DNA of 23,570 nucleotides from the IMG/VR virus record IMGVR_UViG_2563366944_000005. The stretch is one strand, 5' to 3'. This document shows, piece after piece, positions 20,255 through 20,820 of this stretch (the stretch's first letter is position 1; every line of letters starts with the position of its first letter). Origin of the DNA: a virus (lineage: Duplodnaviria > Heunggongvirae > Uroviricota > Caudoviricetes). A program made the position numbers and the translations under genes. The notes beneath the pieces are model-generated. The model ran no database searches. It was not told where the DNA came from and saw nothing but the letters and a program-made list of their open reading frames with translations.

Positions 20255-20322
20255 TTGTTAGTCATAACTAACAAGATAGATGTTAACAAAAACATAGTCA
20301 ATACGATTTAGCATTAGCTAAC
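20255..20322. promoter_or_regulatory. dicA-dicC divergent control region with two TTAG-N6-CTAA operator-like palindromes
   Basis: TTAGtcataaCTAA at about 20258-20271 and TTAGcattagCTAA at about 20308-20321; also ATGTT-aacaaa-AACAT dyad. Confidence 0.5.
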
Positions 20323-20323
20323 T

Positions 20324-20731
20324 ATGGAAACAAAAAATTTAACTATCGGCGAACGCATCAGGTATCGTCGGAAAAACCTCAAACACACCCAAAGGTCTCT
20401 TGCTAAAGCCCTGAAAATCTCCCATGTGTCTGTATCACAATGGGAACGGGGTGATAGTGAACCTACAGGGAAGAACCTTTTTGCCCTCAGCAAAGTATTG
20501 CAATGCTCACCAACATGGATTCTATTTGGCGATGAAGACAAGCAACCAACACCACCTGTTGAGAAGCCAGTTGCCTTATCCCCCAAAGAACTAGAGCTCC
20601 TTGAGCTGTTTAATGCACTGCCAGAATCAGAACAGGATACCCAGCTCGCCGAAATGCGAGCTCGAGTAAAAAACTTCAATAAACTCTTTGAAGAATTACT
20701 AAAAGCCCGTCAGCGGACAAATAAAAGATAA
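20324..20731 (+). CDS. dicA: HTH repressor DicA (135 aa)
   Basis: Track ORF METKNLTIGERIRYRRKNLKHTQRSLAKALKISHVSVSQWERGDSEPTGKNLFALSKVLQCSPTWILFGDED...; ATG verified. Confidence 0.9.
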   Translation: METKNLTIGERIRYRRKNLKHTQRSLAKALKISHVSVSQWERGDSEPTGKNLFALSKVLQCSPTWILFGDEDKQPTPPVEKPVALSPKELELLELFNALPESEQDTQLAEMRARVKNFNKLFEELLKARQRTNKR

Positions 20732-20791
20732 CATCATCAATGAGTTATCTTTTACCACATCAATTATGTTAGCTATAGCATACAAAATCAC

Positions 20792-20820
20792 TTGACCGAT
20801 ATGTTAGTCATGGCTAATCT
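20792..20820 (+). promoter_or_regulatory. candidate dicB-operon promoter with overlapping operator
   Basis: TTGACC, 17 nt, TAATCT; the spacer holds a third TTAGtcatggCTAA palindrome (about 20804-20817). Confidence 0.5.

Follow-up and report, generated by a model that had tools for sequence, protein, structure and literature searches.

The immunity region of a defective lambdoid prophage poses a simple question: what do three copies of one short palindrome, TTAG-N6-CTAA, do around the dicA/dicC switch and the dicB operon promoter? The stretch of DNA analyzed here (23,570 bp, hereafter the window) carries this region, and the initial annotation had proposed that one repressor acts through a shared operator at both places. 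The answer bears on cell survival. DicB and the small RNA DicF, both inhibitors of cell division, are encoded in the dicB operon along with a lysis protein, YdfD; dicA is essential in K-12 because it keeps all three off. The positions at which the repressors sit explain why a defective prophage does no harm and by what means it can be switched on. The operator design of the Qin switch is already known (Bejar, Bouche and Bouche 1988, as cited; Yun 2012; Ragunathan 2023; Lally 2024), and our finding re-derives a regulatory design that has been in the literature since 1988 and that later work has validated in part. What is added is a site-by-site map tied to the annotated operators of P22, together with a comparative footprint across 17 lineages.

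Identity of the locus

Over 1.5 kb, the locus matches many E. coli chromosomes, one K-12 derivative among them, at 100% identity. Genes in the matching records are annotated dicC, dicA, ydfA, ydfB and ydfC, corresponding to the dicC-dicA-ydfABC-dicF locus of the K-12 Qin prophage. The gene after dicC belongs to Pfam family YdaT, ydfA begins with an ATG at 20898 and Rfam places the DicF RNA at 21773-21824. dicC and dicA are divergent, with 83 bp between their ATGs (20240 on the minus strand and 20324), which is the gene layout of P22-type immunity operators. The region is the immunity region of Qin, a P22-type genetic switch. Elsewhere in the window Rfam identifies, on the minus strand at 6017-6402, 8912-9304 and 16150-16321, two 5′ UTRs of the cspA thermoregulator type together with a sok antitoxin RNA, in keeping with the cold-shock paralogues of Qin and its hok/sok-type module.

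Residues 7-71 of DicA match the DNA-binding domain of P22 C2 (1ADR/2R1J/3JXB, solved with operator DNA) with E=8e-20. Pfam detects helix-turn-helix families alone in the 135-aa protein: there is no S24 peptidase domain, the C-terminal part being short and helical, and RecA-assisted cleavage is therefore not expected. The Ala-Gly bond is absent from DicA, and repression is relieved instead by the antirepressor Rem (Ragunathan 2023, PMC10448788). DicA is thus CI-like at the DNA, yet stands outside the cleavable, SOS-inducible CI/LexA-type class.

A palindrome confined to two regulatory regions

The pattern TTAGNNNNNNCTAA matches exactly three times in the 23,570 bp, the number that the initial annotation had given, where 0.23 matches are expected; none of 100 dinucleotide-preserving shuffles yields three. 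Copies 1 and 2 both fall, again as claimed, within the 83-bp divergent region. When the intergenic stretches alone were subjected to mononucleotide shuffling, two perfect copies within 20241-20323 had P<0.0002 and one perfect copy within 20732-20897 had P=0.003.

The motif extends to an 18-bp dyad, TGTTAG-N6-CTAACA, with 12 specified positions: copy 1 agrees at all 12, copy 3 at ten and copy 2 at nine. Matches to the 18-mer with no more than two mismatches number three in the whole window, against 0.78 expected, and all lie in the two regulatory regions; one of them is a further site upstream of the dicB promoter (dicBp). The layout consists of five sites rather than three: three strong ones plus two weaker ones (20281-20298 and 20767-20784). 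Details of all features are given in Table 1. The palindromes are very probably real DicA/DicC operators of the Qin prophage, three of the five in its immunity region.

Table 1. Genes, promoters, palindromes and operators of the Qin immunity region (window coordinates).
Feature	Position	Strand	Details
dicC	20010..20240	-	Cro-like repressor gene, 76 aa; ATG at 20240; Pfam P22_Cro E=1.7e-11; RefSeq name in identical genomes
Operator Oc (OR1-like), contains copy 1	20255..20274	.	TTGTTAGTCATAACTAACAA; spans about -8 to +12 of dicCp
Copy 1	20258-20271		TTAGTCATAACTAA
dicC promoter (dicCp)	20273..20301	-	-35 TTGACT 20301-20296; 17-nt spacer; -10 TATCTT 20278-20273; start ~20266; from promoter scan
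Degenerate middle site (OR2-like)	20281..20298	.	TGTTAACAAAAACATAGT; 7/12 consensus positions in K-12
Operator Oa (OR3-like), contains copy 2	20306..20323	.	ATTTAGCATTAGCTAACT; ends 1 nt before ATG
Copy 2	20308-20321		TTAGCATTAGCTAA
dicA	20324..20731	+	CI/C2-like repressor gene, 135 aa; Pfam HTH_3 E=1.3e-16, Phage_CI_repr
Distal operator (OL2-like)	20767..20784	.	TGTTAGCTATAGCATACA; 10/12 consensus positions; upstream of dicBp -35
dicBp (P_L-like promoter)	20792..20820	+	-35 TTGACC 20792-20797; 17-nt spacer 20798-20814; -10 TAATCT 20815-20820
Proximal operator (OL1-like), contains copy 3	20802..20819	.	TGTTAGTCATGGCTAATC; in spacer, overlaps -10
Copy 3	20804-20817		TTAGTCATGGCTAA
5′ leader of ydfABC-dicF-dicB transcript	20828..20897	+	70 nt; putative +1 = A at 20828

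Operators between dicC and dicA

The three upstream sites are centred at 20264.5, 20289.5 and 20314.5, a regular spacing of 25 bp, and overlap both divergent promoters. Copy 1 with its flanks is, base for base, the 20-mer Oc of Yun 2012 (PMC3441716). In that work the 20-mer was bound by DicA in vivo and repression acted through it; an A-to-C change in the CTAA half-site abolished both, and spontaneous mutations permitting the cloning of the promoter fragment clustered in Oc. The dicC start was mapped by 5′RACE, with Oc overlapping the dicC -10 (PMC3441716). DicA dimers at Oc have thereby been shown to block the dicC promoter, and the Reg-Seq paper also recovers a DicA site at dicC. The -35 element of dicC is kept, as AGTCAA on the plus strand, in all lineages.

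The middle site is probably the Om of Bejar, an assignment made by position. According to Yun 2012 (PMC3441716), Om and Oa were defined in Bejar 1988 by sequence alone, and DicA bound neither of them (data not shown).

Copy 2 overlaps the -10 of dicA (TAGCAT, 20309-20314) as well as the start (~20320), and ends three bases 5′ of the dicA ATG, which has no Shine-Dalgarno sequence before it. The dicA mRNA has a leader of less than 10 nt by dRNA-seq (PMC4681348). Copy 2 therefore sits on the -10 and the start of a near-leaderless promoter, and the hexamer within it, TAG(C/T/A)AT, is conserved in all lineages examined. From its position we infer that copy 2 is the published Oa. Given that DicA was reported not to bind Oa, occupancy of isolated copy 2 by DicA is unsupported. 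DicA is required for transcription of dicA (Yun 2012, PMC3441716); activity of the dicA promoter is lower when DicA is overproduced from a plasmid (Yun et al., PMC3441716). A different dicA -10, CATAGT at 20293-20298, which would set Oc at -41.5 as a class II activator site, was considered and rejected because the A at position 2 varies across lineages and the mRNA is leaderless.

Probable operators at the dicB operon promoter

The third copy had been described as lying inside the spacer of a promoter 70 bp upstream of ydfA. Most of the copy is indeed in the spacer, but its final TAA doubles as the first half of the -10; the distance to ydfA is exactly 70 nt when counted from the putative start, and 77 nt when counted from the end of the -10. 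The site is perfect or nearly perfect at the same position in 15 lineages. The distal site has its centre 35 bp from that of the proximal site, and related lineages carry a one-mismatch site 34-36 bp upstream of their proximal site. The leftward early promoter, which lies downstream of the repressor gene, thus carries a second cluster of operators of the same family. A third dicBp operator, sought upstream of the distal site at the position of P22 OL3, gave a poor match (4/8 arm positions by inspection).

dicBp is missing from the output of a generic sigma-70 promoter scan, its -10 matching only 3/6 consensus positions. The -35, the 17-bp spacing and positions T1, A2 and T6 of the -10 (TAAnnT) are nevertheless conserved in 15 lineages, and the promoter is collinear with the annotated P_L of P22, including CACTTGACC. 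Because conservation and collinearity with P22 both support dicBp, the scan result was not counted against it.

The sequence CATCAAC..., which follows the -10, shows homology to the P_L starts of lambda (mapped) and P22 (annotated), CATCAGCAGGACGC, and on this homology the +1 of dicBp was placed at 20828. RNase III is published to cut between positions 813 and 814, and a DicF species of 190 nt is known. Numbered from 20828, the cut falls at 21640/21641 and the 190-nt DicF extends to 21830, where the terminator T-run (21825-21829) finishes. We infer that the published numbering begins at the +1 of dicBp.

Genetically, DicA has been shown to keep dicBp off: deletion of dicA raises dicBp activity 22-fold (Ragunathan 2023, PMC10448788). 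Position, conservation and homology to P22 suggest that DicA would act there through the proximal and distal sites. In the literature searched we found no site-resolution DicA data (ChIP, EMSA) at dicBp, and the Reg-Seq paper lists a DicA site for dicB as low-evidence and without location. Both intergenic regions are described as containing three operator sequences each, like lambda P_R and P_L (PMC10448788, citing Bejar 1988); at dicBp two sites are convincing here, as against three in the Bejar 1988 description as cited.

DicC also recognizes these regions. By ChIP-seq (Lally 2024) its binding is strongest at its own promoter, with inferred sites either side of dicA, and the palindromic motif recovered has TT(A/C/T)G as one arm and C(G/A/T)AA as the other (TTNG...CNAA). 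Induction of DicC lowers dicA 48- to 84-fold (Lally 2024), but leaves dicB and dicF expression unchanged despite binding near the promoter (Lally et al. 2024). The proposal of one repressor acting through a shared operator on both the switch and the dicB promoter is accordingly borne out as to the operator family, by published experiments and by the comparative tests below; the proteins that read it are two, DicA and DicC.

The dicA stop, the leader and the ydfC stop

Several features lie beside these operators. A weak terminator-like hairpin covers the dicA stop at 20727-20753 (GATAAC, an 11-nt loop, GTTATC, then TTTT). A conserved sequence, GAGTTATCTTTT, was examined as a candidate operator and rejected, being better read as the 3′ arm and T-run of this hairpin. 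Related lineages have a clearer hairpin-plus-T-run at the position of the dicA stop, which would insulate dicBp from dicA read-through.

The leader of the dicB operon (20828-20897) is unusually conserved. It contains GTTCCGC, which is invariant, and the hairpins H1 (20834-20847) and H2 (20869-20884; CCCC/GGGG stem, loop AGCGTTAA). Across 235 loci, which yield 55 distinct leaders, compensatory changes preserve the pairing of both hairpins, also when another gene comes first downstream. In two of the loci (L010 and L183) H2 reads GCCCG-GAAAGA-CGGGC, is similar to lambda boxB, and stands at the annotated position of P22 nutL. Searched against Rfam with E values up to 10 allowed, 20700-21000 gave nothing relevant to the leader, and its folding energy is no better than that of shuffled sequences (z = 0.27). 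The leader could be a nutL-like antitermination or stability element without a known partner protein. On a bolder reading, which we think unlikely, Qin-type phages would have an uncharacterised antitermination system of which the leader is the mark.

Immediately past the stop codon of ydfC, at 21427-21458, the half-sites recur in a rearranged cluster: GTTAGTAGCTAATC (TTAG-N3-CTAA) and GCTAAGGTTAGT (CTAA-GG-TTAG). This cluster might correspond to the weak DicC ChIP-seq peak ‘upstream of dicF’ of Lally et al.

Conservation among DicA-like lineages

Approximately 250 loci encoding relatives of DicA (6 from a scan of genome contigs, supplemented by four scans of viral contigs) were grouped at <88% identity into 17 lineages, which range from 49 to 100% identity to DicA. 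Sites were defined as TTAG-N6-CTAA with at most one mismatch and were positioned relative to the ATG of the repressor gene. One locus (L002; JAIIUG010000151.1, a 2.5-kb contig), labelled as a Collinsella MAG, encodes a protein 99% identical to E. coli DicA; the likeliest explanation is that a contig from E. coli or a phage was mis-binned into this MAG.

Sites occur at -66, the position of Oc, and at -16/-15, the position of copy 2, in 16 of the 17 lineages; seven have a one-mismatch site at the middle position (-41/-40), spaced 25 bp from the site on either side. Beyond the 3′ end of the repressor gene, a conserved -35 lies between two sites that are 34-36 bp apart. Overall, site density is 16.3 per kb in regulatory regions and 0.21 per kb elsewhere in the same loci, a 78-fold difference. 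Among 78 close relatives, substitutions are found in the central 6 bp and the flanks, and none in the half-sites. The palindrome is conserved in phages of Serratia, Citrobacter and Stenotrophomonas.

The exception is the lineage of phiES15, whose recognition helix reads SSVSVFKWE rather than SHVSVSQWE. An unbiased search of all 4-mer arms and gaps recovered TAAC-N4-GTTA at five equivalent positions in this lineage, three upstream and two downstream, with 0-1 background matches. Since the palindrome switches at both loci together with the recognition helix, its behavior is that predicted for a shared operator: as in P22, operator sequence tracks repressor specificity, which is the mark of heteroimmunity. 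Lineages with an AHVTISQWE helix retain the TTAG/CTAA arms, differences being confined to flanks and centre; the four-base arms therefore do not carry full specificity, to which flanks and centre must contribute.

In the loci of the phiES15 lineage (L009 and L171-L177) the operators stand at -62/-37/-17 upstream and +45/+79 downstream of the repressor gene. The half-site GTTA(G) seems to point outward rather than inward, an arrangement that suggests, at the level of sequence, another dimer geometry or mode of reading by the same fold.

Alternative explanations

That the palindromes arose by chance, or reflect a DNA or RNA structure such as a cruciform or hairpin instead of protein sites, is a reading to which we give practically no credence. 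In its favour are the shortness of the arms (4-6 bp) and the AT-richness of the region, but the number of copies exceeds both the expectation and every shuffle, and the enrichment in regulatory regions extends across lineages. Half-sites are fixed and centres vary, with no compensatory changes in the arms beyond the fixed motif; copies 1 and 3 are largely upstream of, or at, start sites; and a point mutation in a half-site abolishes DicA binding (PMC3441716). The structural reading is effectively refuted already. A host factor, either YjdC/DicD or H-NS/Cnu, as the main binder in place of the prophage repressors is very improbable too. YjdC is enriched 2- to 12-fold at the dic locus by ChIP-qPCR and yjdC interacts genetically with dicA/dicC (PMC9283627), while the CnuK9E-H-NS complex antagonises DicA binding (PMC3441716). 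The YjdC data, however, carry no site-level evidence, and the palindrome both co-varies with the recognition helix of the phage repressor across phages of different hosts and is conserved in phages of three other bacterial genera, neither of which a TetR-type protein or H-NS would explain.

A more substantial alternative divides the sites between the two repressors: DicA would use Oc and the dicBp site(s), and copy 2 would belong to DicC only, its sole job being to shut off dicA once DicC is made. The published statement that DicA bound neither Oa nor Om in vivo speaks for this, as do the strong repression of dicA on DicC induction and the binding of DicC in the divergent region. Copy 2 differs, moreover, in its outer bases (ATTTAG...CTAACT, against TGTTAG... 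in copies 1 and 3) and has a conserved centre. That centre is equally well explained by its second role as the dicA -10. The repressors of lambda and P22 do bind OR3, weakly or cooperatively, in a manner that a single-site assay would miss, and the lower dicA-promoter activity with overproduced DicA fits autorepression (Yun et al., PMC3441716). We regard an exclusive assignment of copy 2 to DicC as possible but doubtful, and prefer a family of operators open to both proteins.

A model for the switch

In the preferred model, the 18-20 bp dyad TGTTAG-N6-CTAACA would be read by a DicA dimer and likewise by DicC. DicA at Oc would cover the -10 and start of dicC, thereby blocking dicC and the rightward early genes; at the dicB operon, copy 3 and the weaker site 35 bp upstream would, when occupied, exclude RNA polymerase and leave ydfABC-dicF-dicB silent. 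Occupation of copy 2 would shut off dicA: because the copy overlaps the core of the dicA promoter, any occupant represses it. By analogy with Cro at OR3, DicC is likely to be its first occupant. DicA may bind there only cooperatively or only at high concentration, as the lambda and P22 repressors would lead one to suppose, and this fits the decrease in dicA-promoter activity on DicA overproduction. Activation of dicA by DicA could be direct, or could come from relief from competition with the overlapping, stronger dicC promoter.

A more speculative arrangement, which we think unlikely, is that the OR cluster and the OL pair, which are 546 bp apart, are brought into cooperative or looping contact by the short, non-peptidase C-terminal domain of DicA, with copy 2 occupied by DicA only within such a complex. 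If true, it would reconcile the failure of DicA on isolated Oa with autoregulation of the near-leaderless dicA promoter.

Comparison with P22 and lambda

Among the closest counterparts of the Qin switch is that of P22. The DNA-binding domains of DicA (residues 7-71) and C2 are ~59% identical, and DicC belongs to the Pfam family P22_Cro. In annotated P22, TTAA-N6-TTAA occurs at -64, -41 and -16 from the c2 ATG, within the annotated OR1-OR3 feature; the corresponding positions in Qin are -66, -41 and -16. In both phages a TTGACC promoter holds OL1 in its 17-bp spacer, OL2 is 35 bp farther upstream, the operators share an 18-bp dyad geometry, the P_L transcript begins ATCA... and the repressor mRNA is near-leaderless (the annotated 5′ end of P22 P_RM is 4 nt before the c2 ATG). 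The two regions are in fact collinear almost base for base over P22 OR1-3, OL1-2, P_RM and P_L. Judged by this alignment, copies 1, 2 and 3 are the equivalents of OR1, OR3 and OL1, 20281-20298 that of OR2 in degenerate form, and 20767-20784 that of OL2.

There are also differences. Half-sites read TGTTAG in Qin but (A/T)TTAAG in P22, on account of which heteroimmunity is expected. P22 has an OL3, whereas no equivalent was found in K-12 Qin, where the equivalent of OR2 is moreover degenerate. Qin further departs from P22 in that its repressor has no S24 peptidase domain and yields to an antirepressor, Rem.

With lambda the likeness is one of architecture. Operator sequences are unrelated, those of lambda being 17 bp long, and DicA lacks the cleavable C-terminal domain. 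Lambda OR1 lies around -17 of P_R; Oc, unlike it, is centred at about +2 of dicCp. Common to both are a repressor gene and a cro gene that diverge from a region of three operators, a second cluster at the leftward early promoter, a leaderless repressor mRNA and a P_L transcript whose 5′ end is homologous to the leaders of the DicA family. Like the lambda and P22 pairs with which they are compared here, DicA and DicC form a repressor and Cro-like pair, and together they behave as a bistable switch (Ragunathan 2023, PMC10448788).
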